64,000 nucleotides of DNA from Escherichia coli (GTDB lineage: Bacteria > Pseudomonadota > Gammaproteobacteria > Enterobacterales > Enterobacteriaceae): assembly GCF_024223415.1 (NCBI RefSeq), contig NZ_CP100500.1. The stretch is one strand, 5' to 3'. A model generated the notes under the pieces. The model had not been told where the DNA came from and did not search any database. It saw nothing but the letters and a program-made list of their open reading frames with translations. Below, in pieces: positions 3,242 through 26,039 of this stretch. Both the position numbers and the translations under genes were made by a program. Numbering within the stretch: position 1 is the first letter of the stretch; each line of letters begins with the position of its first letter.

Positions 3242-3502
3242 TCAATAGGCCGCACGGTTGTTTGGTGGCGTCAAAATTGCCGAGGCGTTCCCTGAAGGCC
3301 GGGGCAGCCCACATGGATGTGGGCTGAGGGCGCGTTTTACAGGGATGTTACCTCGCGCCCGACCCGGTAGCCGTAAGGGATAAGCCGAGGGCACCGCGCA
3401 GCGGCGATTTTGTTCGCCAGAGCCCGGGGGTGCAGGGGGCGGCGGCGATTGGCCGCCCCCTGCGCGCTCCTTGCGCCAGTGATTATATGAAGCAATGCAC
3501 AT
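3242..3502. repeat. GC-rich palindromic intergenic element (unclassified structured repeat)
   Basis: Very GC-rich stretch between dusC and yohP with a perfect 12-bp inverted repeat gcagggggcggc...gccgccccctgc and a second hairpin gcccacatggatgtgggc; the overlapping 86-aa Pro/Gly-rich ORF is not credible as coding. Confidence 0.4.
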
Positions 3503-12980: not shown

Positions 12981-13022
12981 GCCTGATGTTCATATCTTAA
13001 CTTGCTGAATTTTCGCCCTTTG

Positions 13023-13060
13023 TAGGCCGGATAAGGCGCTCGCGCCGCATCCGGCAGGAA
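13023..13060. repeat. REP element
   Basis: gccggataaggcgctcgcgccgcatccggc matches the classic REP palindrome. Confidence 0.6.
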
Positions 13061-13198
13061 ACGCCGGACCGAATATGCCTCTTAAGTATTTATCTGATTC
13101 TGCAACTGAATCCTTCCGCTCAAGCTAACCCCGCCATTATCAACTATGCTTTTCTCTTAATTCGCTGAAAACAACAGTAAAAGAATGAGGAAAGCATC

Positions 13199-14116
13199 AT
13201 GCCACTCTTAAAGCTCTGGGCAGGTTCACTGGTTATGTTGGCAGCCGTGAGCCTGCCGCTACAGGCGGCTTCCCCCGTTAAAGTCGGTTCAAAAATCGAT
13301 ACCGAAGGTGCGCTACTCGGCAATATCATTTTGCAGGTGCTGGAAAGCCACGGCGTACCGACGGTGAATAAAGTGCAACTCGGAACGACTCCTGTGGTGC
13401 GCGGGGCGATTACTTCCGGTGAACTGGATATCTATCCGGAATATACCGGCAATGGCGCTTTCTTCTTTAAAGATGAAAACGATGCAGCGTGGAAAAACGC
13501 GCAGCAAGGTTACGAGAAAGTCAAAAAGCTCGATTCGGAGCACAACAAGTTAATCTGGCTGACGCCCGCGCCTGCAAATAACACCTGGACTATCGCCGTG
13601 CGTCAGGATGTGGCAGAGAAAAATAAACTCACTTCGCTTGCCGACCTGAGTCGTTATCTGCAAGAGGGCGGCACCTTCAAACTGGCAGCCTCGGCAGAGT
13701 TTATCGAACGCGCCGATGCGTTACCCGCGTTTGAAAAAGCCTATGGCTTTAAGCTCGGTCAGGATCAGTTGCTGTCACTGGCTGGTGGCGACACGGCGGT
13801 GACGATCAAAGCCGCTGCCCAGCAAACCTCTGGCGTTAATGCTGCAATGGCTTACGGCACTGACGGCCCGGTAGCGGCGCTGGGGCTGCAAACCTTAAGC
13901 GATCCGCAAGGTGTGCAACCTATCTACGCGCCTGCACCAGTGGTGCGTGAGTCGGTGTTGAGGGAGTATCCGCAAATGGCACAGTGGCTACAGCCAGTCT
14001 TCGCCAGCCTCGATGCAAAAACATTGCAGCAACTGAATGCCAGCATTGCTGTGGAAGGACTGGATGCCAAAAAAGTGGCTGCCGACTACCTGAAACAAAA
14101 AGGGTGGACGAAGTAA
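13199..14116 (+). CDS. osmF: glycine betaine ABC transporter periplasmic binding protein
   Basis: 305-aa ORF with signal peptide MPLLKLWAGSLVMLAAVSLPLQA; K-12 yehZ position. Confidence 0.9.
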   Translation: MPLLKLWAGSLVMLAAVSLPLQAASPVKVGSKIDTEGALLGNIILQVLESHGVPTVNKVQLGTTPVVRGAITSGELDIYPEYTGNGAFFFKDENDAAWKNAQQGYEKVKKLDSEHNKLIWLTPAPANNTWTIAVRQDVAEKNKLTSLADLSRYLQEGGTFKLAASAEFIERADALPAFEKAYGFKLGQDQLLSLAGGDTAVTIKAAAQQTSGVNAAMAYGTDGPVAALGLQTLSDPQGVQPIYAPAPVVRESVLREYPQMAQWLQPVFASLDAKTLQQLNASIAVEGLDAKKVAADYLKQKGWTK

Positions 14117-14122
14117 TTTCCC

Positions 14123-15280
14123 GTGACTTATTTCCGTATTAATCCTGTTCTGGCGCTGCTGCTGTTGCTGACGGCAATCGCAGCGGCGCTGCCGTTTATC
14201 AGTTACGCGCCTAATCGTTTAGTTTCGGGTGAGGGGCGTCATCTCTGGCAGCTGTGGCCGCAAACGATCTGGATGCTGGTGGGCGTTGGTTGCGCCTGGC
14301 TGACGGCCTGTTTTATTCCCGGTAAAAAAGGCAGCATTTGTGCACTCATTCTGGCGCAATTCGTCTTCGTATTGCTGGTGTGGGGAGCTGGAAAGGCGGC
14401 GACCCAACTGGCGCAAAATGGCAGTGCGCTGGCGCGTACCAGCCTCGGCAGTGGTTTCTGGCTGGCTGCGGCGCTGGCATTGCTGGCCTGTAGCGATGCC
14501 ATCCGCCGAATCTCCACGCATCCGCTGTGGCGCTGGTTGTTGCATATGCAGATTGCCATTATTCCGCTGTGGTTGCTGTACTCCGGCACGCTTAACGATC
14601 TCTCACTAATGAAAGAATACGCCAACCGTCAGGATGTGTTTGACGACGCGCTGGCACAACATCTGACGTTGCTGTTTGGTGCGGTGCTGCCTGCGTTAGT
14701 GATTGGTGTGCCGTTGGGCATCTGGTGCTACTTTTCCACTGCTCGGCAGGGGGCAATTTTTTCTCTGCTCAATGTCATTCAGACCGTGCCTTCGGTGGCG
14801 CTCTTTGGCCTGTTGATTGCGCCGCTTGCCGCGCTGGTGACGGCCTTTCCGTGGCTGGGGAAGCTCGGCATAGCAGGAACCGGAATGACACCCGCACTGA
14901 TTGCGCTGGTGCTCTATGCCTTGCTGCCGCTGGTGCGCGGCGTGGTAGTCGGCTTGAACCAGATCCCGCGCGATGTGCTGGAGAGCGCCAGAGCGATGGG
15001 CATGAGCGGGGCGCGGCGATTCCTGCATGTTCAGTTACCACTGGCGTTACCGGTATTTCTGCGCAGCCTGCGGGTGGTGATGGTGCAAACTGTAGGTATG
15101 GCGGTGATTGCGGCGTTAATCGGCGCAGGCGGTTTTGGTGCGCTGGTTTTCCAGGGGCTGCTAAGCAGCGCCATTGATTTAGTGTTGCTGGGGGTGATCC
15201 CGGTAATTGTTCTGGCGGTGCTTACCGACGCGCTGTTCGATTTGCTTATCGCACTGCTGAAGGTGAAACGTAATGATTGA
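14123..15280 (+). CDS. yehY: ABC transporter permease
   Basis: 385-aa multi-TM permease; overlaps the yehX start. Confidence 0.9.
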
Positions 15281-16199
15281 ATTTAGCCATGTCAGCAAAC
15301 TGTTCGGCGCACAAAAAGCCGTTAACGATCTCAATCTCAATTTTCAGGAAGGGAGTTTTTCGGTGCTGATTGGCACATCTGGCTCCGGCAAATCCACCAC
15401 CCTGAAAATGATTAACCGCCTGGTGGAGCATGACAGCGGAGTGATCCGCTTTGCCGGAGAAGAAATTCGCTCGCTGCCAGTACTGGAGTTGCGCCGCCGG
15501 ATGGGCTATGCCATTCAATCTATTGGCCTGTTCCCCCACTGGAGCGTGGCGCAAAACATCGCTACCGTGCCGCAATTACAAAAATGGTCGCGGGCGCGGA
15601 TTGACGATCGTATCGACGAATTAATGGCGCTACTGGGGCTGGAGTCAAATTTGCGTGAGCGTTATCCGCATCAGCTTTCCGGTGGTCAGCAGCAACGTGT
15701 GGGAGTGGCGCGTGCACTGGCTGCCGATCCGCAAGTCTTACTAATGGATGAACCTTTTGGCGCACTGGACCCGGTAACGCGCGGCGCGTTGCAACAAGAG
15801 ATGACGCGCATTCACCGTTTGCTGGGGCGTACCATTGTGCTGGTCACTCATGATATTGATGAGGCGCTACGGCTGGCAGAACATCTGGTATTGATGGATC
15901 ACGGTGAAGTAGTGCAGCAGGGCAATCCGCTGACGATGCTGACTCGTCCGGCGAATGATTTTGTCCGCCAGTTTTTTGGACGTAGTGAACTGGGTGTGCG
16001 CCTGCTTTCGTTACGTAGTGTGGCGGATTACGTGCGTCGCGAAGAACGAGCAGATGGTGAGGCACTGGCAGAAGAGATGACGCTACGCGATGCGCTCTCT
16101 CTGTTTGTTGCGCGGGGATGCGAGGTGCTGCCGGTGGTGAACATGCAGGGCCAGCCTTGCGGCACGCTGCATTTTCAGGATCTGCTGGTGGAGGCGTAA
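15273..16199 (+). CDS. yehX: ABC transporter ATP-binding protein
   Basis: Walker [13 protein letters not shown] signature LSGGQQQRV, Walker B LLMDEP. Confidence 0.92.
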
Positions 16200-16203
16200 G
16201 CGT

Positions 16204-16935
16204 ATGAAGATGTTGCGCGATCCGCTGTTCTGGCTCATTGCTCTGTTTGTGGCGCTGATTTTCTGGCTGCCTTACAGCCAGCCGCTGTTTGCTGCCTTGT
16301 TCCCACAACTGCCACGACCCGTTTATCAGCAAGAAAGTTTTGCAGCTCTGGCACTGGCTCATTTCTGGCTGGTGGGAATTTCGAGTTTGTTTGCGGTGAT
16401 CATTGGCACTGGTGCCGGAATTGCTGTCACTCGCCCGTGGGGCGCGGAATTTCGCCCACTGGTGGAAACTATTGCCGCCGTTGGACAGACTTTTCCGCCC
16501 GTCGCAGTGCTGGCGATCGCCGTTCCGGTGATCGGCTTTGGTCTGCAACCAGCGATTATCGCCTTGATCCTTTACGGTGTGCTGCCCGTCCTGCAGGCGA
16601 CACTTGCCGGGCTGGGAGCGATTGATGCCAGCGTGACAGAAGTTGCGAAAGGTATGGGAATGAGTCGTGGTCAGCGACTGCGTAAGGTCGAGCTACCGCT
16701 GGCGGCTCCGGTGATTCTGGCGGGCGTGCGAACTTCGGTGATTATCAACATTGGTACGGCGACGATCGCCTCAACGGTAGGGGCCAGCACGCTGGGTACG
16801 CCCATCATCATCGGGCTTAGCGGATTTAATACCGCGTATGTGATCCAGGGGGCGTTACTGGTGGCACTGGCGGCGATCATCGCAGACCGCCTGTTTGAAA
16901 GGCTGGTGCAGGCGCTTAGCCAGCACGCAAAATAA
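16204..16935 (+). CDS. yehW: ABC transporter permease
   Basis: 243-aa multi-TM permease completing the osmF-yehYXW operon. Confidence 0.9.
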
Positions 16936-17023
16936 AGGTATAACCTGCGAGCATGACGCCACCAATTCCGCCTAACGCCATAAACAGGAACAGGGCGATG
17001 ACCCCAATTTTAGCTATGCGCAT
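16916..17023 (-). CDS. yohO: 35-aa small membrane protein
   Basis: Reverse [38 protein letters not shown]; matches K-12 YohO from memory; overlaps the yehW 3' end. Confidence 0.65.
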
Positions 17024-17082
17024 AATGCACTCCTTATGTTAACGAAAGGATTGTACAGTAAAGCGCATTTGTTAACGAATCA

Positions 17083-17766
17083 TTAAATGCCGAGTGGGAA
17101 AATATCATGGCCTTGTTCTTGCCAACTGGTGAGTTGCTGCTGTTGGGCGGAGGTTCGATTTTCACCGCACCACACCAGCAATGTACGGCCTTCGAATAGT
17201 TCAGGGCGTAGTTGATTGAGCGAGTGGGCGAGGACATCAATGCGCCATCCTTGTTGACTGGCAATCCAGCCCTCCAGCCACAGACGGGTGGTATCCTGAA
17301 TATTCCAGCCAACCACCAGCGCATCTTTACCCTGTTTTTTACGTGCCGAAGCCAGACAAATGGCGATGTAGTTGATCAGTACGCCGTCGAGGATCGCCAG
17401 CAGCGCCTGGAGAGTCGGTTGTTGGCACTGAAGCCGTCGGCGCAGAGGAATAAACAGATGTGTGGTGAGTGTCTGGGCGGGGTAATCCTGACCGCGCTCT
17501 TTGATCCACGTTCGCAGGCTATGTAGATTGCCGCTTTGCAGGTAAGTCAGTAATGTTTCTTGCTGATCGCGCCAGCCGTTCTGCACATCAACATTTTCAT
17601 TACTGAGCAGCATTTTAACTTTGCTGACCTGCACGCCGTTGTCGATCCAGCGTTTGATCTCGCGGATCCGGTCAATATCGGCATCGTTGAACAGCCGATG
17701 ACCGCCGTCTGTCCGTTGCGGTTTCAGCAATCCGTAACGCCTCTGCCACGCGCGTAACGTGACAGG
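17083..17766 (-). pseudogene. mlrA: mlrA (yehV) 3' portion, separated from its 5' end by prophage insertion
   Basis: Reverse translation ...LKPQRTDGGHRLFNDADIDRIREIKRWIDNGVQVSKVKMLL... is the MerR-family curli regulator MlrA lacking its first ~22 codons, which lie at 63009..63074. Confidence 0.88.
17747..17766. repeat. attL core (direct repeat with 63007..63026)
   Basis: cacgcgcgtaacgtgacagg is identical at both prophage ends and lies inside the mlrA reading frame (encodes PVTLRAW). Confidence 0.8.
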
Positions 17767-17804
17767 GATTAAGGGTAAACTAACTGATTTTACAAGTTTT
17801 TATT

Positions 17805-19091
17805 TTACCCCACTTTCTTATGGGGCATACATGGGACACTTTCAGATAGTCTTTTGTTAAGGAGTTCTATCTGTTCGTGATTGTTGTCTTTCATCCATGC
17901 TCCGTAAACATTGAATACCATTTGTGCGTTTGTGTGGCCCATCTGGCTTGCGATAAAACTAGGATTAGCTCCAGCGGCAAGTGACCAGCATGCATAAGTA
18001 TGCCTGGATTGGTACGATTTTCTGTGTCTCAGACCTGCGCGTTTTAAGATACTTGTCCATGACTCCCTGATGGAGTCAACCTTATAGTGCGGTCCGGAAA
18101 ACTGCCGCTGTTTTATTACCTGAGGACTAAAAACAAAAGTGCATTTATGCACAGTACTTCTCCCATATTCCCTCTGCTTTACCTCTACAGAATGTTGCTT
18201 TCCAAGCATGGTCATTTCCGCCTGACTTTTAAGAGCATCAATAGCTGGTTGAACCAGATGAATTGTCCTTCCGGTGCCAGCATCGGTTTTTGGTGGAGTG
18301 AATTCGCCAAGTTTTGTATAATTCCTACGGATGGTTATAGTCCTTGCTTTAAGGTCTATATCTTCCCATGCCAGCGATACCAACTCCCCGTGACGAATAC
18401 CCGTGTATACAGCGAGAATCCACAGGTTTTTTGTTTGTTGATGACGGCAAGCCTCAATAAAACGAATAAATTCGTCACGGGTGAGAGGATCTGGTTTTAC
18501 CTTGGACTTTTTTAAGGGAGCCAGACCGTTAAATGGGTTTCCTGAGGTATAACCATTATCTGTTGCAAATTGAAACATTCCAGCTATGGTTGTCATATAG
18601 TAGTTTACCGTGACCACTGAGCGCCCTTTTATGGAAGAAGTCTTTCCATTAGAAAGCTTTTGGTAACCGGTCAACAAATCTCTCCTTACGAAAAGTAAAT
18701 CCTCTTTTGTTATGGATGAAACCAGTTTTTTTTCACCTAACATTGGTAACATGTTTTTAATTACTGACTGGTAACGGTTAAGTGCATTCGCACAAATCTC
18801 AATTTTCTTAAGGTCCAACCATTTTTCCGAAAGTGCCTTAACGGTTATCTCTCTTTTTCCCAGACCAAAGTGTTTCAGGTTAGGGGAATTAGGGAACTGC
18901 GCGGCGTAGTCGAAACTCCCCATTCTGATTGCAAAACAAACGGAAGTGCGAAGTTCACCTGCGATCTTCCGGTTTTTGGCGGTGTCAGGAACACCGAGGT
19001 TTTCTCTGACACGTTTGCCATTATAGTGAAACCATATACGGAGTGATCCTCCATGGTTTTCAACGCCTGTCGGGTATGATACGTTACTCAT
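17805..19091 (-). CDS. int: phage integrase (tyrosine recombinase)
   Basis: 428 aa; C-terminal catalytic region ...RHTYACWSLAAGANPSFIASQMGHTNAQMVFNVYGAWM; adjacent to attL. Confidence 0.9.
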   Translation of the reverse strand: MSNVSYPTGVENHGGSLRIWFHYNGKRVRENLGVPDTAKNRKIAGELRTSVCFAIRMGSFDYAAQFPNSPNLKHFGLGKREITVKALSEKWLDLKKIEICANALNRYQSVIKNMLPMLGEKKLVSSITKEDLLFVRRDLLTGYQKLSNGKTSSIKGRSVVTVNYYMTTIAGMFQFATDNGYTSGNPFNGLAPLKKSKVKPDPLTRDEFIRFIEACRHQQTKNLWILAVYTGIRHGELVSLAWEDIDLKARTITIRRNYTKLGEFTPPKTDAGTGRTIHLVQPAIDALKSQAEMTMLGKQHSVEVKQREYGRSTVHKCTFVFSPQVIKQRQFSGPHYKVDSIRESWTSILKRAGLRHRKSYQSRHTYACWSLAAGANPSFIASQMGHTNAQMVFNVYGAWMKDNNHEQIELLNKRLSESVPCMPHKKVG

Positions 19092-19124
19092 TAAACCTCC
19101 CAGACGTCCAGGAGCATTAACAGG

Positions 19125-19379
19125 TTAACCGGAACTTGCATTTTTGGCACCTGGTTGTTTCTGGTTTTCGATCCATCGCATAATTTCTTCGATGTTGTAC
19201 AGGCATTCACTGTAGTGCCCCGGATCACCTTCTACAGCGTAATGGCGGTATTCTTTTCCCTGCATCCATGACTTTCTTCTTGCCCGCTCAATGGTGCCAG
19301 GCTTTAGCCCTGTTGATGCAATGAGGACTCTCTCCGTACACCATTTGCTGGGGGTTATCTGATAGATGATTGTTTGCAT
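19125..19379 (-). CDS. excisionase-like protein (putative)
   Basis: 84-aa ORF immediately upstream of int on the same strand; assignment is by position and size only. Confidence 0.45.
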   Translation of the reverse strand: MQTIIYQITPSKWCTERVLIASTGLKPGTIERARRKSWMQGKEYRHYAVEGDPGHYSECLYNIEEIMRWIENQKQPGAKNASSG

Positions 19380-20820: not shown

Positions 20821-21159
20821 TTACATGTTCCCCATAACGGTATCGCTCATGTCGTTAACCATGCTCTGCCAGATTTCTTTGCCGCTTTGCGTCAGCTCGT
20901 TTCCACGAACGCATTTGCTTAACAGCTGAATACCAACGGCTTCCCATTGGGGGTAATTTTCTTTGATAGCCTTCAGAGCATAACCATCGATTAAATCCCT
21001 GATACCTTTAACCCCACCGATGATGTTTACTCGTATGGATTGCCCATTGACATTAATCATGAAATGATCTCCGTTGGTGGCGGATATGTGGTTGTGCAGT
21101 GCAGCCGCATACTGATTTGCCAGCGCATTGAGGCGGAAATTTTGTGTAATGAGTGGCAT
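20821..21159 (-). CDS. hypothetical phage protein (112 aa)
   Basis: MPLITQNFRLNALANQYAAALHN...; start overlaps the upstream stop. Confidence 0.45.
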   Translation of the reverse strand: MPLITQNFRLNALANQYAAALHNHISATNGDHFMINVNGQSIRVNIIGGVKGIRDLIDGYALKAIKENYPQWEAVGIQLLSKCVRGNELTQSGKEIWQSMVNDMSDTVMGNM

Positions 21160-21905
21160 TATTTACCCTCCCAACCAATCACCTGAAACAGCCCCATTTT
21201 CGGGTGATACCAGCGGGTACCGCGTGGCTCTGCCTCTGACATCATCTGATGAAATGCTTTCATGAACGGCTCAAGCTCCACGATAGCCCGGCGAGAAAGA
21301 AGACCATCTGGCGTCATAAATTCGTGCGTATCGGTTGGGATGCTGTAGGCATTGACCAGATTGCGGCACTTGGCATCAGTCATTCCGCTTTTGGCGACCA
21401 CCTGGCGATAACCGACATATCCGGCGCGCATATTTCCGCGTTTGATGTTCTCCACAGCTTTGGTGACCGTTTCGATCTTCTCTTCAACATGACTCAGGCG
21501 CTTCTGCTGGCGAACGGCATCGGCGGCCATTGCAGCGATCATCTCCATTTCCGTCAGCGGCGCGTGAGTTCGGAAATAGCTGTTAACCAGTTCGCGCTGA
21601 ACCTGCCATGCAAGAGTATCGTTAAAAGGCTTCGTCAACATCAGGTAACCAGACTCGAAAAGAATGATCCCTTTGGCAGTTCGCGCGGCAAAGGCATCAG
21701 AAAGTGACTCCGTACGTATTACGTCCGCAGTCATTTCAAGAAAATCCACCCCTTCGATAAAGTGAGAACGGTTGCGGTTAAACGCAGCACGGGCGGTACC
21801 TTCCGGGCGCTGGTGGACGTCATCAATCATTGCAAATGTCACAACACGCTGACCGCGATATTCGATTACCGGAAACTGTTTGTTGTTGATGGTTACAGTA
21901 TTCAT
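21159..21905 (-). CDS. ORF6N/KilA-N-like domain protein (antirepressor-like)
   Basis: Track ORF 21159..21980; start taken at MNTVTINNKQFPVIEYRGQRVVTFAMIDDV... with GGAG RBS; N-terminal region resembles the ORF6N/Bro-N DNA-binding fold. Confidence 0.5.
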   Translation of the reverse strand: MNTVTINNKQFPVIEYRGQRVVTFAMIDDVHQRPEGTARAAFNRNRSHFIEGVDFLEMTADVIRTESLSDAFAARTAKGIILFESGYLMLTKPFNDTLAWQVQRELVNSYFRTHAPLTEMEMIAAMAADAVRQQKRLSHVEEKIETVTKAVENIKRGNMRAGYVGYRQVVAKSGMTDAKCRNLVNAYSIPTDTHEFMTPDGLLSRRAIVELEPFMKAFHQMMSEAEPRGTRWYHPKMGLFQVIGWEGK

Positions 21906-21948
21906 TTTTATCTCCAGACAGCCCGGCGTGTAATACCGGGCATATGTA

Positions 21949-22776
21949 TTACTTAACCTGAATAAATGGTGTGTTGGCACCGCTGGTCATGTATTGCGGC
22001 AGTGTACCGTTCCACTTGTTGATGGCTTCCAGCTCCATAACGTTTGGGTTCTGGCGCAGAGCTTCACCGCGTAAACGAATAGCATCGGCTTCGGCCTGGG
22101 CTTTTGTGCGAATCGCATCTGCCTGTCCGGCAGCTTCCGCGCGCAACATGTTGGCTTCCGCTTCGCGCTGTTTTACTTCCTGCTCGCGTTGCAGGGTTTT
22201 CTGGTTGGCCGTGACTTTGGCATTAATGCTGTCGATAACGGTTGGCGGGTACTCCGGCTTACCCACATATGAGAGGCTCATTACCTGAATACCGATAGGT
22301 GTCATCTCTGCCTGAATGTCTTTAAGAGCTTCATCCAGCAGCTCAGACTTGCCGCCGTCGATAAATTTGTCAGTGGTCATTTTGCTGGCCAGTCGGTTGA
22401 GTGCGTCGGCGATCTTCTGGCGCAGGTCAGTGTCGGTAATGTCATCCACGCCTTTGCGGTAGGTCTGAAACACCGTGGTAACTTTGGATGGATCAACTTT
22501 GTAGGCCACGCCAATGTGATAGCCGATGGTTGTACCGTCACTCATCTGGAAACTGAACGGTTCATCGTAGGTCTTCATTTGTTTGAAGGTGGGGAAGATA
22601 TAAACTTCAGTATTCCAGCCAGTCCAGTAGCGACCAACACCGACCACCTCACCGACGCCTTTGTCGTCGCCCAGTTTATTTACCTTGATGCCAACATTAC
22701 CTGGTTCAACGCGATCGCAACCGACAAGGCCAATAGTCGGCAGAACAATGGCTAAAGCAAAAATAATTTTTTTCAT
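21949..22776 (-). CDS. SPFH/band-7 (prohibitin-like) domain lipoprotein
   Basis: MKKIIFALAIVLPTIGLVGC lipoprotein signal (lipobox LVGC); central SPFH-like domain and Ala/Glu/Gln-rich coiled coil (QREQEVKQREAEANMLRAEAAGQADAIR). Confidence 0.7.
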   Translation of the reverse strand: MKKIIFALAIVLPTIGLVGCDRVEPGNVGIKVNKLGDDKGVGEVVGVGRYWTGWNTEVYIFPTFKQMKTYDEPFSFQMSDGTTIGYHIGVAYKVDPSKVTTVFQTYRKGVDDITDTDLRQKIADALNRLASKMTTDKFIDGGKSELLDEALKDIQAEMTPIGIQVMSLSYVGKPEYPPTVIDSINAKVTANQKTLQREQEVKQREAEANMLRAEAAGQADAIRTKAQAEADAIRLRGEALRQNPNVMELEAINKWNGTLPQYMTSGANTPFIQVK

Positions 22777-22961
22777 CTTTTATCCTTAGTGAAAGAAAGA
22801 CCCTTGTAAATGGCATAAATGCAGGGCGGGGTCAGAAACGCCAGTGCAAAGCCAGAAATAACTGCTATCGTATCCTTCATGGATATAAGGAACGGAACGA
22901 TTAATCCGTAAATACATGTGATAATTGCCAGTGATATAACTATTCTGAAATAAATGTTCAT
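22773..22961 (-). CDS. small two-TM membrane protein (62 aa)
   Basis: MNIYFRIVISLAIITCIYGLIVPFLISMK...; its stop overlaps the start of the SPFH lipoprotein gene. Confidence 0.5.
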   Translation of the reverse strand: MNIYFRIVISLAIITCIYGLIVPFLISMKDTIAVISGFALAFLTPPCIYAIYKGLSFTKDKR

Positions 22962-23021
22962 GGTCCTCCTGATGTATTCGGCTTGCCTTATTTAATTGCG
23001 TCATAGTTAATTTCGTTTACG

Positions 23022-23267
23022 TCAGAATGGTTTTGTTGCCATCAGTTCGTAATATCCGGCGCTCCATGTGTCATATTTTCTGAACCATTTTTCTGTATAC
23101 TGTTTCCTGGCGATGAGTCTGCGCAGTCGTCTGATTGTTCGCTGGTGTGCGCGGGTATACTCTGTGGTTGATTCTCCACGTTTCCATATCTCATTCCTGT
23201 TGAAGATAAAACGCTTGTCAGGATAGCGTTGTCGGAATCCTGAACGTTCAAAAGCGCGGGTGGTCAT
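23022..23267 (-). CDS. hypothetical basic protein (81 aa), possibly a gene remnant
   Basis: Arg/Lys-rich ORF; upstream 23270..23420 holds an out-of-frame fragment (MIDNRTASAIDQALQKHDTPVGPLFFVTRHGR...) across an A8/T8 tract. Confidence 0.3.
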   Translation of the reverse strand: MTTRAFERSGFRQRYPDKRFIFNRNEIWKRGESTTEYTRAHQRTIRRLRRLIARKQYTEKWFRKYDTWSAGYYELMATKPF

Positions 23268-23601
23268 AAAGAATGCCAGGTAACGAATTGCCGTTTTTCG
23301 AGTGAGGCATTTTTTTTGTTCTTCCGTGGCGTGTTACAAAAAATAACGGGCCGACGGGTGTATCATGTTTCTGTAATGCCTGGTCAATGGCGCTGGCGGT
23401 GCGGTTGTCGATCATTTCTTTATTTCTCCCGAATAACGTTCATGACTCATTACTTCCCAGTTCCGGCCGTCGTCTTTCGATAACAGCCGCCAGCGACGGT
23501 TAACCTTCAGACTGAGATATCCGGTGCGCTGTATCCGATGCGGAAATATCCGTCGGCATCGGTACAACAACAGGACCTGCAATGCCTGCCGGTGGATCCG
23601 C

Positions 23602-24741: not shown

Positions 24742-25161
24742 TTATGCTTCCTCCTGATTTTGTTTATAAGCACCAGTCAGTAACCACATCGGATCACAGC
24801 CAAGAACATTAGCCAGAGGAATAATCTGGCTTGCCAGAGGCTCCCTCTTGCCACTTTCCCACTGGATGATAATTTCTTCATCGAGATTGAGCAGCCTGGC
24901 GAGTTCGGCGGTTGTTAAGCCGCAGTCTTCGCGTTGGGTGCGAATCCGATTCTGGGAATTAATAGCTAAATTTTGTTTGCATAAACGTGACGCGGTGAGG
25001 CTATATTTTTGAGTTACAGCCAGGATGGAGCTGGCAAGTTCAATTAACTCAGGGTTATTGCTGCTATACAGTAGTGCACCAGCCCCTACTAAGAGCTGAA
25101 TATTCTCAAGAGCATCGTGCTGATTTGTTGGTAACCCCATATACGATGACATTTTTCTCAT
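24742..25161 (-). CDS. XRE-family HTH regulator with an N-terminal helical domain (139 aa)
   Basis: C-terminal HTH CGLTTAELARLLNLDEEIIIQWESGKREPL; first gene after the promoter downstream of cI; GAGG RBS. Confidence 0.6.
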   Translation of the reverse strand: MRKMSSYMGLPTNQHDALENIQLLVGAGALLYSSNNPELIELASSILAVTQKYSLTASRLCKQNLAINSQNRIRTQREDCGLTTAELARLLNLDEEIIIQWESGKREPLASQIIPLANVLGCDPMWLLTGAYKQNQEEA

Positions 25162-25198: not shown

Positions 25199-25235
25199 AA
25201 GATAATAGGTTTACCGATTTCACCTGTCAATCGGT
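25199..25235 (-). promoter_or_regulatory. strong sigma70-type leftward promoter (pL-like) with overlapping inverted repeat
   Basis: Minus strand reads TTGACA-17 bp-TATTAT; inverted repeat ACCGAT(n11)ATCGGT overlaps the -35; TTATCG half-sites resemble the OR palindrome. Confidence 0.5.
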
Positions 25236-25250
25236 TTATCGATTTTTTCC

Positions 25251-25280
25251 AAAAAAAAGCCCACTTAAGAGTGGGCGGGT
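25251..25280 (-). terminator. rho-independent terminator downstream of cI
   Basis: Minus strand hairpin GCCCAC-tcttaa-GTGGGC followed by T8, 15 bp past the cI stop. Confidence 0.55.
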
Positions 25281-25294
25281 TAAATGATTTTTGC

Positions 25295-25987
25295 TTATGC
25301 AAAACGGTGTAGTGTCATAGGCCAACTGACAATTACTTTTCCGTCAATGTGAAGTTGTTCGAAGTCTTCCGGTTCGATAGCCCAATCCTTGTAAGCTGGG
25401 TTGTCAGATATCACCGTTAGAGTATCTTTGATTTTTTGAAGTCTTTTGATGTGCGATGTTCCAGAGTATGTAAAGGCGTATATACCATCACCATTAAATG
25501 TGCGAACTGATACATCTACAAATACCAAGTCTTCAGGGTCTATTGTGCCTTTCATACTGTCGCCGTGGGCGTTTATTGCTTTGATTGCTGATGCTGGTCT
25601 GCCGCCAAAAACTCTTGATGCGTATCCTGGCTCTATCGCTATAGATCTGACAATGTCAGGAAAATCAGAGTTATAACTACCAGGTCCGCAACTATATCTG
25701 ATGTCTAAAACATCCACGACATACGAATCAGTAACCCAATCTTCAGAAATGTTACGTATTTGGTGTGAGTCTGCAGAGGTCACGATTTCCATTGGGCCAA
25801 CACCCGATGCGAGCCATTCCGGGTTAACGCCCAAAACTTTTGCTATTTCGACTGTTTTTCTGGAACCGTTGGCTTTGTTAAGTAGTTGGTTAACACTGGA
25901 CTGAGCCATACCCACTTCTTTGGCCAGCCTACCTTGCGTAAATTTTGCGTTGCGCATAGCTAAATCAAGTCGTTCTGAAAATGTCAT
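25295..25987 (-). CDS. cI: CI-like repressor (HTH + S24 LexA-type peptidase domain)
   Basis: N-terminal HTH (FTQGRLAKEVGMAQSSVNQL) and C-terminal S24 autocleavage domain (AHGDSMKG...IKRL); divergent from the cro-like gene. Confidence 0.85.
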   Translation of the reverse strand: MTFSERLDLAMRNAKFTQGRLAKEVGMAQSSVNQLLNKANGSRKTVEIAKVLGVNPEWLASGVGPMEIVTSADSHQIRNISEDWVTDSYVVDVLDIRYSCGPGSYNSDFPDIVRSIAIEPGYASRVFGGRPASAIKAINAHGDSMKGTIDPEDLVFVDVSVRTFNGDGIYAFTYSGTSHIKRLQKIKDTLTVISDNPAYKDWAIEPEDFEQLHIDGKVIVSWPMTLHRFA

Positions 25988-26019
25988 TGCGATTTTCCTC
26001 CCCTCTCTATCTTGGCTAG

Positions 26020-26039
26020 TTTATCGGCTTTCCGATAAA
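26020..26039. promoter_or_regulatory. operator-like palindrome in the cI/cro intergenic region
   Basis: TTTATCGG-cttt-CCGATAAA perfect inverted repeat. Confidence 0.5.

Follow-up and report, generated by a model that had tools for sequence, protein, structure and literature searches.

Within a 64,000-nucleotide (nt) stretch of an Escherichia coli chromosome (contig NZ_CP100500.1, assembly GCF_024223415.1; hereafter the window), a lambdoid prophage carries two overlapping minus-strand genes, which encode a 62-amino-acid (aa) protein with two transmembrane (TM) segments and a 275-aa predicted lipoprotein with an SPFH, or Band 7, domain. Judged from its sequence relatives, the pair exemplifies a phage module that is both widespread and common, in lytic as well as temperate phages. 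We put the probability at roughly 0.55 that the two proteins form a split SPFH membrane scaffold, which would lie at the periplasmic face of the inner membrane and would be made during lytic growth. The features of the pair, several of them taken from a list of open reading frames (ORFs), are as follows.

22773–22961, minus strand: gene for the 62-aa partner, PHROG 1130 (ORF list; phrog_1130 'membrane protein' at 2.2e-23).
22965–22970, minus strand: perfect Shine-Dalgarno sequence of the partner gene, AGGAGG, with 3 nt between it and the ATG (read from the sequence).
22773–22776, minus strand: ATGA overlap between the TGA stop of the partner gene and the ATG start of the SPFH gene (read from the sequence).
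21949–22776, minus strand: gene for the 275-aa SPFH/Band 7 lipoprotein, PHROG 200 (ORF list; phrog_200 'lipoprotein' at 6.8e-115).
22717–22776, minus strand: predicted lipoprotein signal peptide, residues 1–20 (pattern match).
22153–22713, minus strand: SPFH domain, residues 22–208 (Pfam PF01145 envelope and AlphaFold2 secondary structure).
22051–22245, minus strand: long helix rich in Ala, Glu, Gln and Arg, residues 178–242 (AlphaFold2 model).
21952–22050, minus strand: conserved C-terminal tail, residues 243–275 (invariant alignment columns).

The 275-aa protein has the architecture of an SPFH cage subunit, in which an α/β SPFH domain leads into a long helix and then a C-terminal segment, as seen with both AlphaFold2 and Foldseek. 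The Pfam Band_7 model (PF01145) matches residues 22–208 over model positions 2–176 of 176 (E = 3e-31, 109 bits). An AlphaFold2 model built from 59 diverse relatives, with a mean predicted local distance difference test (pLDDT) score of 91.4, contains the SPFH β/α domain, an unbroken 65-residue helix (residues 178–242) and a less ordered tail. The top Foldseek match of this model is HflC (7vhq_G, 6.9e-14), followed by PHB1/2, HflK and erlin, all as full-length cage subunits, with further matches to stomatin, flotillin and major vault protein; the probability is 1.00 for HflC, HflK, PHB1/2, erlin, stomatin and flotillin over 240–300 aligned columns. Every one of these proteins builds a ring or cage on a membrane. 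Those of the first group do so on the non-cytoplasmic face, the side that a lipoprotein signal would also indicate for the window protein. A search of the PDB with the family profile gives a similar picture, returning prohibitin 1 at 2e-10, prohibitin 2, HflC, HflK and, further off, QmcA. In NCBIfam, the protein matches only HflC, HflK and FloT, all below threshold, and its scores fall short of the equivalog cut-offs for HflC (26.5 vs 134.4 bits) and HflK (23.2 vs 159.4 bits).

Conservation within the family is strongest at the lipobox Cys, at the motifs GRYW and FPTF within the SPFH domain, and at a C-terminal KW[ND]G-x-LP signature in which Trp255 and Gly257 are invariant and Pro260 is found in at least 90% of members. 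The stretch of residues 178–242 aligns with helical regions of HflK, HflC and prohibitin, and in the model it would correspond to the 'wall' helix of SPFH cages. By analogy, the tail is presumed to be the ring-closing, or cap, segment; because the C-terminal segment closes the ring in known cages, its conservation is read as pointing to oligomerisation. The N-terminus consists of an MKK n-region, a hydrophobic core and the lipobox IVLPTIGLVG-C, which places the cysteine at residue 20, with Asp and Arg at positions +2 and +3. This agrees with the PROSITE PS51257-type pattern (basic n-region, uncharged h-region, [LVI][ASTVI][GAS]C, Cys at 15–35), by which lipidation is predicted, and of 59 diverse family members at least 90% keep Cys20. 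Compared with the window allele, 53 distinct alleles of the SPFH gene give a ratio of nonsynonymous to synonymous substitution rates (dN/dS) of 0.04.

The 62-aa partner is made up of two hydrophobic segments with a short turn between them. In the family alignment the turn, P-x-L-I-S-x-x-D-T, contains an invariant Pro23 and a near-invariant Ser27, and its consensus across the partner family is G-x-x-x-P-x-[LM]-[IV]-S-x-x-[DS]-[ST]. The two tails hold 27 (N-terminal) and 69 (C-terminal) Lys and Arg residues, summed over 24 members of the family, against 12 in the loop, and because of this distribution the sequences indicate a hairpin with both termini in the cytoplasm (N-in/C-in) and the turn in the periplasm. 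A profile search with the partner alignment finds no Pfam family at E ≤ 0.001, with NfeD absent even from the weak matches, and no relative in the PDB, YbbJ included; in NCBIfam neither the partner nor any of ten neighbouring ORFs has a match. For comparison at close range we used 80 relatives from IMG/VR that are 97–100% identical, found by a search with a 12-sequence alignment, which also served to define the module boundaries. The partner ORF is intact in all 79 of the close-relative loci that include upstream sequence, and its dN/dS against the window allele is 0.35 (27 alleles). Because of the PHROG matches, the presence of the partner in 79 of 79 relatives and the dN/dS values, both ORFs are, on sequence grounds, real genes and not chance reading frames.

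The two genes are tied together at their junction. On the minus strand it reads TAAGGATAAAAGATGAAAAAA, with AAGGA preceding the ATG of the SPFH gene, and the ATGA overlap implies that translation of the two is coupled. This arrangement of an adjacent, co-directional and coupled small membrane-protein gene is conserved across phages. Among 20 diverse loci sampled by hand from the phage collection and encoding contigs, 13 have a member of the partner family directly upstream of the SPFH gene, and in a further four another small TM ORF takes its place (TL gp11, Magneto gp179, Kayvirus MbpV and a 72-aa ORF of PhiSH19). The proteobacterial phage loci that were opened first all have a small upstream membrane ORF that overlaps or abuts the SPFH gene. 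In the Salmonella phage PhiSH19, the 72-aa two-TM ORF (positions 2432–2650 of that locus, minus strand) is unannotated; it lies between a gene labelled 'superinfection exclusion' and the SPFH gene, whose start it overlaps. It belongs to another family, and its strongly basic loop suggests a topology opposite to that of the window partner.

Natural gene fusions provide the clearest link between the hairpin and the SPFH protein. An exhaustive search gave 3072 cluster representatives at E ≤ 1e-3 (50%-identity clusters). Many SPFH representatives are 320–390 aa long, and their N-terminal extension is the partner hairpin; such hairpin fusions make up about 11% of the cluster representatives, or about one in nine. 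A hidden Markov model (HMM) built from seven free-standing partners only picks up 15 longer SPFH representatives through their N-terminal extension and one further representative through a copy at its C-terminus; conversely, an HMM built from the fusion extensions only recovers the 62-aa protein of the window at 1e-18. The fusion P0003, which shares 91% identity with the SPFH protein of the window, is found in two independent assemblies. The fused proteins begin with the hairpin, which a basic linker joins to a signal-peptide-like helix that retains a lipobox, and end with the SPFH domain, a topology that fits an N-in/C-in hairpin and a periplasmic SPFH domain. Because the two are naturally fused, the sequences are strong evidence that the hairpin and the SPFH protein work together physically.

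Two details of the fusions stand apart from this argument. The lipobox Cys is kept at the junction in 17 of 18 fusions (P0125, P0129, P0132, P0137, P0141, P0143, P0147, P0148, P0160, P0003 and others), and as a side possibility the fused forms may be polyproteins that are cut at the internal lipobox by signal peptidase II. Protein P0134 carries a partner-like hairpin at its C-terminus (residues 283–336), preceded by a start-like MKKEII...; this could reflect a locus with the genes in reverse order, in which the stop codon between them was lost or recoded.

The copy in the window is itself ordinary, being near-identical to phiP27 genes that were sequenced more than twenty years ago and belonging to a large known family. 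The same DNA is found in phiP27 at 97% (SPFH protein 99.6% aa identical to L05, NP_543057; partner 90%), in Stx2-converting phages at 93% and, for the SPFH gene only, in the P2-like phage P88 at 91%. Among complete E. coli genomes the pair has a frequency of 7% (392 of 5426), with some copies on plasmids, and it occurs in Stx2 phages and in enterotoxigenic E. coli (ETEC) strains. Protein relatives at 75–90% identity come from Salmonella, Klebsiella, Enterobacter and Citrobacter, and from Erwinia and Klebsiella phages. Members at 40–70% identity are found in strictly virulent phages, namely N4 (VEc25, species Enquatrovirus N4), other Schitoviridae, Vequintavirinae, a 337-kb jumbo phage and T4-like metagenomic contigs; a Kuttervirus carries an SPFH relative too. 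Searched with tblastn, 743 of 50,697 phage records (about 1.5%) contain SPFH relatives, which range over Staphylococcus Kayviruses (MbpS), Enterococcus, Pseudomonas, Burkholderia and Caulobacter phages, a crAss-like phage and Lak megaphages, with more distant SPFH genes in haloarchaeal viruses. The initial annotation had called such proteins unusual for phage early operons, a view refuted by the phiP27, Stx2 and P88 copies, the 7% of E. coli genomes and the 743 phage records.

Both PHROG profiles are matched by adjacent genes in the window. The two families are likewise adjacent in N4/VEc25, and in SSE121 a 54-aa ORF sits between them. The partner ORF is unannotated in phiP27 (positions 3307–3492 of that locus, L001) and in the GenBank records of all the Stx2-converting phages (H98–H108), where the SPFH gene is named 'serine protease'. 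The two-gene unit is now defined, including a partner ORF that is missing from the annotation of many records. The family matters as an SPFH scaffold with a dedicated and sometimes fused two-TM partner, found across very different lifestyles and hosts.

The pair moves between phages as a unit. In phiP27 (L05) and the Stx2 phages it has the same gene order and the same position near int in the leftward early region as in the window, and P88 carries it as gp11–gp12 with a diverged partner; because the flanking genes of these copies differ from those in the window, the pair is taken to be a mosaic module. Its edges can be located in the 80 close relatives, where colinear homology ends 0–34 nt upstream of the partner start in 52 and 13–29 nt past the SPFH stop in 65. 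A scan for promoters and terminators found no promoter-like or terminator-like site flanking the pair. By sequence, then, the mobile unit consists of the two ORFs and little else: its boundaries hug them, neither a promoter nor a terminator comes with it, and as a bare mosaic block it would depend on whatever operon receives it. Moron status was rejected on the same observations: there is no own promoter or terminator, and the block adds only 0–34 nt upstream and 13–29 nt downstream. In P88 the module lies in the early operon, and in the virulent N4, Schitoviridae, Vequintavirinae, jumbo and T4-like phages it lies in gene blocks.

In the window, the receiving operon is the leftward early operon of the prophage, for which the relevant features are listed here.

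17805–19379: int/xis region, including an excisionase-like gene.
17805–19091, minus strand, the same strand as the pair: integrase (ORF list).
Between int/xis and the CI-like repressor: leftward block of small accessory genes, which contains the pair.
25295–25987: CI-like repressor.
25276..25259: terminator of the repressor gene, a clean hairpin with T8; the pL-like promoter follows directly.
25230..25202, minus strand: pL-like promoter TTGACA-17-TATTAT, 11/12 matches (promoter scan).
25209–25221 and 25234–25246: operator-like 13-nt repeats (GTTTAYCGRYTTY), which bracket the pL-like promoter.
26019–26031: third copy of the 13-nt repeat GTTTAYCGRYTTY, in the cI-cro intergenic region.

The TTGACA-17-TATTAT element is the sole strong promoter-like site that the scan found on the leftward strand. 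As no promoter- or terminator-like site adjoins the pair, this promoter most likely drives the leftward operon with the pair in it. The 13-nt repeats are candidate OL/OR operators of the immunity type of this phage. Because the promoter is bracketed by operator-like repeats that it has in common with the cI-cro region, the operon is taken to be off in the lysogen, where its promoter should be silent. The description given in the initial annotation agrees with these results in its essentials: the 62-aa ORF lies where it was placed and has two hydrophobic segments, the overlapping stop and start is the ATGA, the 275-aa product has a predicted lipobox with Cys20, a profile search recovers the SPFH domain as Band_7, the coiled-coil helix appears in the AlphaFold2 model as residues 178–242, and the early-left placement holds, with the pair between int/xis and the CI-like repressor and downstream of the pL-like promoter.

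Taken together, we propose the following mechanism. Upon prophage induction or infection, the leftward, repressor-controlled operon would be transcribed. The hairpin would insert in the inner membrane with both ends in the cytoplasm, and the SPFH protein would be exported, lipidated at Cys20 and held at the periplasmic face of the inner membrane, a retention that we infer from the Asp at +2 and from the fusions, which would force an inner-membrane location. The SPFH domains would then rest on the membrane, and many copies would be joined through their long helices and C-terminal tails into a ring or cage like those of HflK/C, prohibitin and erlin. Such a cage would fence a patch of membrane holding the hairpins, which would be stand-ins for the N-terminal TM anchors of cellular SPFH proteins. 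We hold with fair confidence that the hairpin inserts, that the SPFH protein is lipidated and retained on the periplasmic side, and that a ring forms around a membrane patch. The proposal makes testable predictions, as it specifies a location at the periplasmic face of the inner membrane, the topology of both proteins, and action in lytic growth rather than in the lysogen.

The role of the fenced patch can be proposed more tentatively, with the odds somewhat against it: it may protect or insulate the inner membrane during lytic development, as a form of host takeover or envelope protection. Such protection could appear as exclusion of superinfecting phage at DNA entry or as tolerance of membrane damage. 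We favour envelope protection or exclusion because the module would be expressed early in temperate and virulent phages alike, because its expected location is where incoming DNA and many abortive-infection effectors act, and because phrog_1510, a family labelled 'superinfection exclusion', lies directly upstream of the small-TM and SPFH pair in two unrelated virulent lineages, N4 and the Kuttervirus PhiSH19. The phrog_1510 proteins are soluble and acidic, of about 105 aa, with a WHIPQVPG motif (N4/VEc25, locus L005, 1907–2221; PhiSH19, locus L092, 2638–2958), and the two copies match each other at E = 2e-34. These reasons are associations only, to which the accessory and counter-defence neighbours of the module add a further hint. 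A superinfection-exclusion-type role during lytic growth is a leading guess, and the favoured reading holds, with low confidence, that the pair is not a lysogen-expressed defence system.

It is possible, although unlikely, that hundreds of virulent and temperate phages of Gram-negative bacteria share a phage-specific split SPFH cage that serves as an early inner-membrane fence against competing phages or against membrane-targeting abortive-infection effectors. If true, this counter-defence or exclusion reading would make the module a general device of a new mechanistic type, which would be far more interesting. Among the neighbours of SPFH modules elsewhere we noted a Tad2-like gene, an Acb2/Tad1-hairpin gene, RtcB (twice) and NADAR (twice); the accessory neighbour genes lie at L099 5729–6304, L101 218–520, L102 3701–4924, L010 3657–4889, L105 7202–7759 and L107 1714–2151. 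Neighbourhoods with Tad2-like, Acb2/Tad1, RtcB and NADAR genes hint at typical accessory or counter-defence regions.

Several points weigh against the scaffold and the role proposed for it. The oligomerisation and the cage come from a model of the monomer only. In the light of work on Lol avoidance, an Arg at +3 may weaken the retention conferred by Asp at +2, and many homologues have Ser or Thr at +2; for these two reasons the inner-membrane location rests mainly on the fusions. The small TM partner is absent from 3 of the 20 sampled SPFH loci, and low-level expression in the lysogen remains compatible with the sequence. As for the neighbours, the 'superinfection exclusion' name of phrog_1510 is an untraced label, the window has no phrog_1510 gene, and the neighbour links amount to guilt by association from a handful of loci. 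Finally, the literature searched holds no functional study of this phage SPFH family, only genome-note speculation and a virulence paper on the Pasteurella protein PM0222; published mentions of such phage SPFH genes are made in passing and call their role unclear.

By analogy with cellular systems, the nearest likeness in working would be a cage of the prohibitin or HflK/C type, but one whose membrane anchor has become a subunit in its own right. It shares with HflK/HflC and PHB1/PHB2 the SPFH fold, the long wall helix, the C-terminal cap segment, and an N-terminal anchor on the non-cytoplasmic face of an energy-transducing membrane; these proteins are its best PDB matches, and in size it is close to prohibitin (275 vs 272 aa). 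However, the window SPFH protein is only 14–20% identical to them, and it differs from HflK/HflC in that its anchor is a predicted lipid rather than a TM helix. HflK/HflC is a heteromer of paralogues, whereas the phage-borne operon in the window has one SPFH gene with a two-TM partner of its own.

The SPFH-NfeD operons (QmcA-YbbJ, 8z5g; YqiK-YqiJ; archaeal stomatin-NfeD) resemble the pair in that the gene directly before the SPFH gene, and coupled to it, encodes a small membrane protein; the PDB matches include QmcA, and by analogy the partner would be expected inside the SPFH ring. QmcA faces the cytoplasm, however, whereas the window SPFH protein is predicted to be exported, and the window partner lacks an NfeD domain (PF01957), for whose OB-fold 62 aa leave no room. 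An SPFH-NfeD pair in the strict sense was rejected, as the partner has no NfeD match in Pfam, no similarity to YbbJ and only two TM helices. The Kayvirus pair MbpV-MbpS is likewise made up of a small membrane protein encoded upstream of, and overlapping, the SPFH gene, and MbpS is a distant homologue at about 25% identity; yet MbpV has a single TM segment and belongs to phrog_3667, MbpS is anchored by a TM segment and is not a lipoprotein, and the pair lies in the lysis region. The likeness to T4 Imm and Sp, P22 SieA and HK97 gp15, all small phage envelope proteins, is one of functional analogy only: none is an SPFH protein, and none is related to the window pair in sequence or fold. T4 Imm and Sp are made early in infection and act at the inner membrane or in the periplasm, where DNA enters.

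The most serious rival explanation, which we nevertheless consider unlikely, is that the pair modulates FtsH as an analogue of HflK/C or of lambda CIII. A periplasmic SPFH ring together with the hairpin would trap or shield the protease, and substrates such as CII-like regulators, Xis or phage membrane proteins would be stabilised, biasing the lysis-lysogeny decision in temperate phages. The nearest solved relatives, prohibitin and HflC/HflK, share the non-cytoplasmic side and have FtsH-type AAA proteases as partners, and HflC and HflK are among the only NCBIfam matches, although the scores lie far below the cut-offs, the identity is only 17–20%, and there is a single SPFH gene instead of a K/C pair. 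Small membrane peptides that inhibit FtsH are known in lambda CIII and SpoVM. The location of the pair is also suggestive, in a leftward early operon that encodes a CII-like regulator (phrog_4836, 5e-47), as lambda keeps cIII in its own leftward early operon, and other authors have published the same guess. Against this, the module is common in strictly virulent phages, which make no lysogeny decision, and more distant SPFH genes occur in haloarchaeal viruses.

A second rival is a defence system expressed by the lysogen, that is, a moron-type superinfection-exclusion or abortive-infection function of the kind the initial annotation had in mind. That these are envelope proteins in an accessory region, that the partner falls in the PHROG category 'moron, auxiliary metabolic gene and host takeover' and that the pair is frequent in E. 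coli prophages all speak for such a function, but we regard it as improbable and the defence-system reading as unsupported. In PADLOC-DB 2.0.0 neither of the two proteins nor either of two neighbours matches a family at E ≤ 0.1, the bare two-ORF block brings no promoter or terminator of its own and stands behind an operator-flanked pL-like promoter, and the module is widespread in virulent phages. Furthermore, in the P2-like phage P88 it occupies the early lytic operon and not the known defence hotspots.

N4 is known for its long-delayed lysis, and a lysis-timing device can be envisaged in which the partner is holin- or antiholin-like and the SPFH ring confines it or aids the export of lytic enzymes. 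The analogous MbpV-MbpS pair of Kayviruses, which lies between the endolysin gene lysK and tgl/holA, and for which its authors proposed a role in Sec-dependent export of Tgl, lends this some weight. We think it quite improbable for the window pair, which is separated from the lysis genes by about 13 kb and belongs to another operon; nor is the module beside lysis genes in N4-like, P2-like or T4-like contexts, and MbpV and the window partner belong to different families.

A role in lysogenic conversion or virulence, as a lipoprotein released in vesicles and sensed by TLR2, has a possible precedent in PM0222, a prophage-encoded HflK/C-like protein of Pasteurella multocida for which vesicle release and host TLR2 sensing were reported (PMC9872710). 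The pair does occur in Stx2 phages and ETEC strains, but expression in the lysogen is unlikely and the presence of the module in virulent environmental phages argues against a host-animal function, which makes this explanation very unlikely. The name 'serine protease', carried by the phiP27, Stx2-phage, Erwinia S6 and Kosakonia records, has practically no chance of being right, as it is backed by database names only, Band_7 is the sole significant Pfam domain with no protease domain present, and the SPFH-scaffold fold extends over the whole chain. The recurring annotation, corrected here, probably comes from the old COG name 'membrane protease subunits, stomatin/prohibitin homologs'.

Outside the pair, the window is a segment of the E. 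coli chromosome, identified by yehW/X/Y-osmF-mlrA at 99.9% identity. The host stretch considered lies at positions 13000–17800, and the prophage begins at about 17805, inserted beside mlrA (yehV), which we take to be a known integration site of Stx phages. No stx genes were seen among the window ORFs tested. The remaining features of the prophage are as follows.

Rightward genes: HNH endonuclease, helicase, primase, Q-like antiterminator, endolysin and an Rz-like gene.
31457–31891: Q-like antiterminator.
35498–36031: endolysin.
36569–37051: Rz-like gene.

Large ORFs of up to 1,243 aa, which run to about 61.6 kb, are taken to be the head and tail genes. Between the Q-like antiterminator and the lysis genes, on the opposite strand, lies a 367-aa ORF that matches phrog_410 (32075–33178, minus strand, 5e-164), a family with no function assigned; presumably this is the slot in which lambdoid phages often carry cargo such as stx.

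Three further observations concern the leftward operon. Its first gene encodes a 139-aa helix-turn-helix protein (24742–25161, minus strand), which matches the 'CII-like regulator' phrog_4836 at 5e-47; for a CII-type gene this position is unusual when lambda is the comparison. Immediately upstream of the pair, minus-strand ORFs of 81 aa (23022–23267) and 55 aa (23248–23415) overlap each other and match different parts of phrog_1886, a family of 135 positions, the former at positions 50–130 (C-terminal) and the latter at 1–36 (N-terminal). From its sequence this looks like a frameshifted or split gene, which could be a pseudogene, a sequencing error or a programmed frameshift. On the 3' side of the pair is an anti-repressor-like gene (21159–21980, minus strand; phrog_1726 at 1.6e-69), listed from a GTG at 21980 that overlaps the end of the SPFH gene. 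The family match begins near residue 26–29, and an ATG at 21905 is preceded by a GGAG ribosome-binding site; the true start is probably at 21905, which would leave a gap of 43 nt after the SPFH stop.

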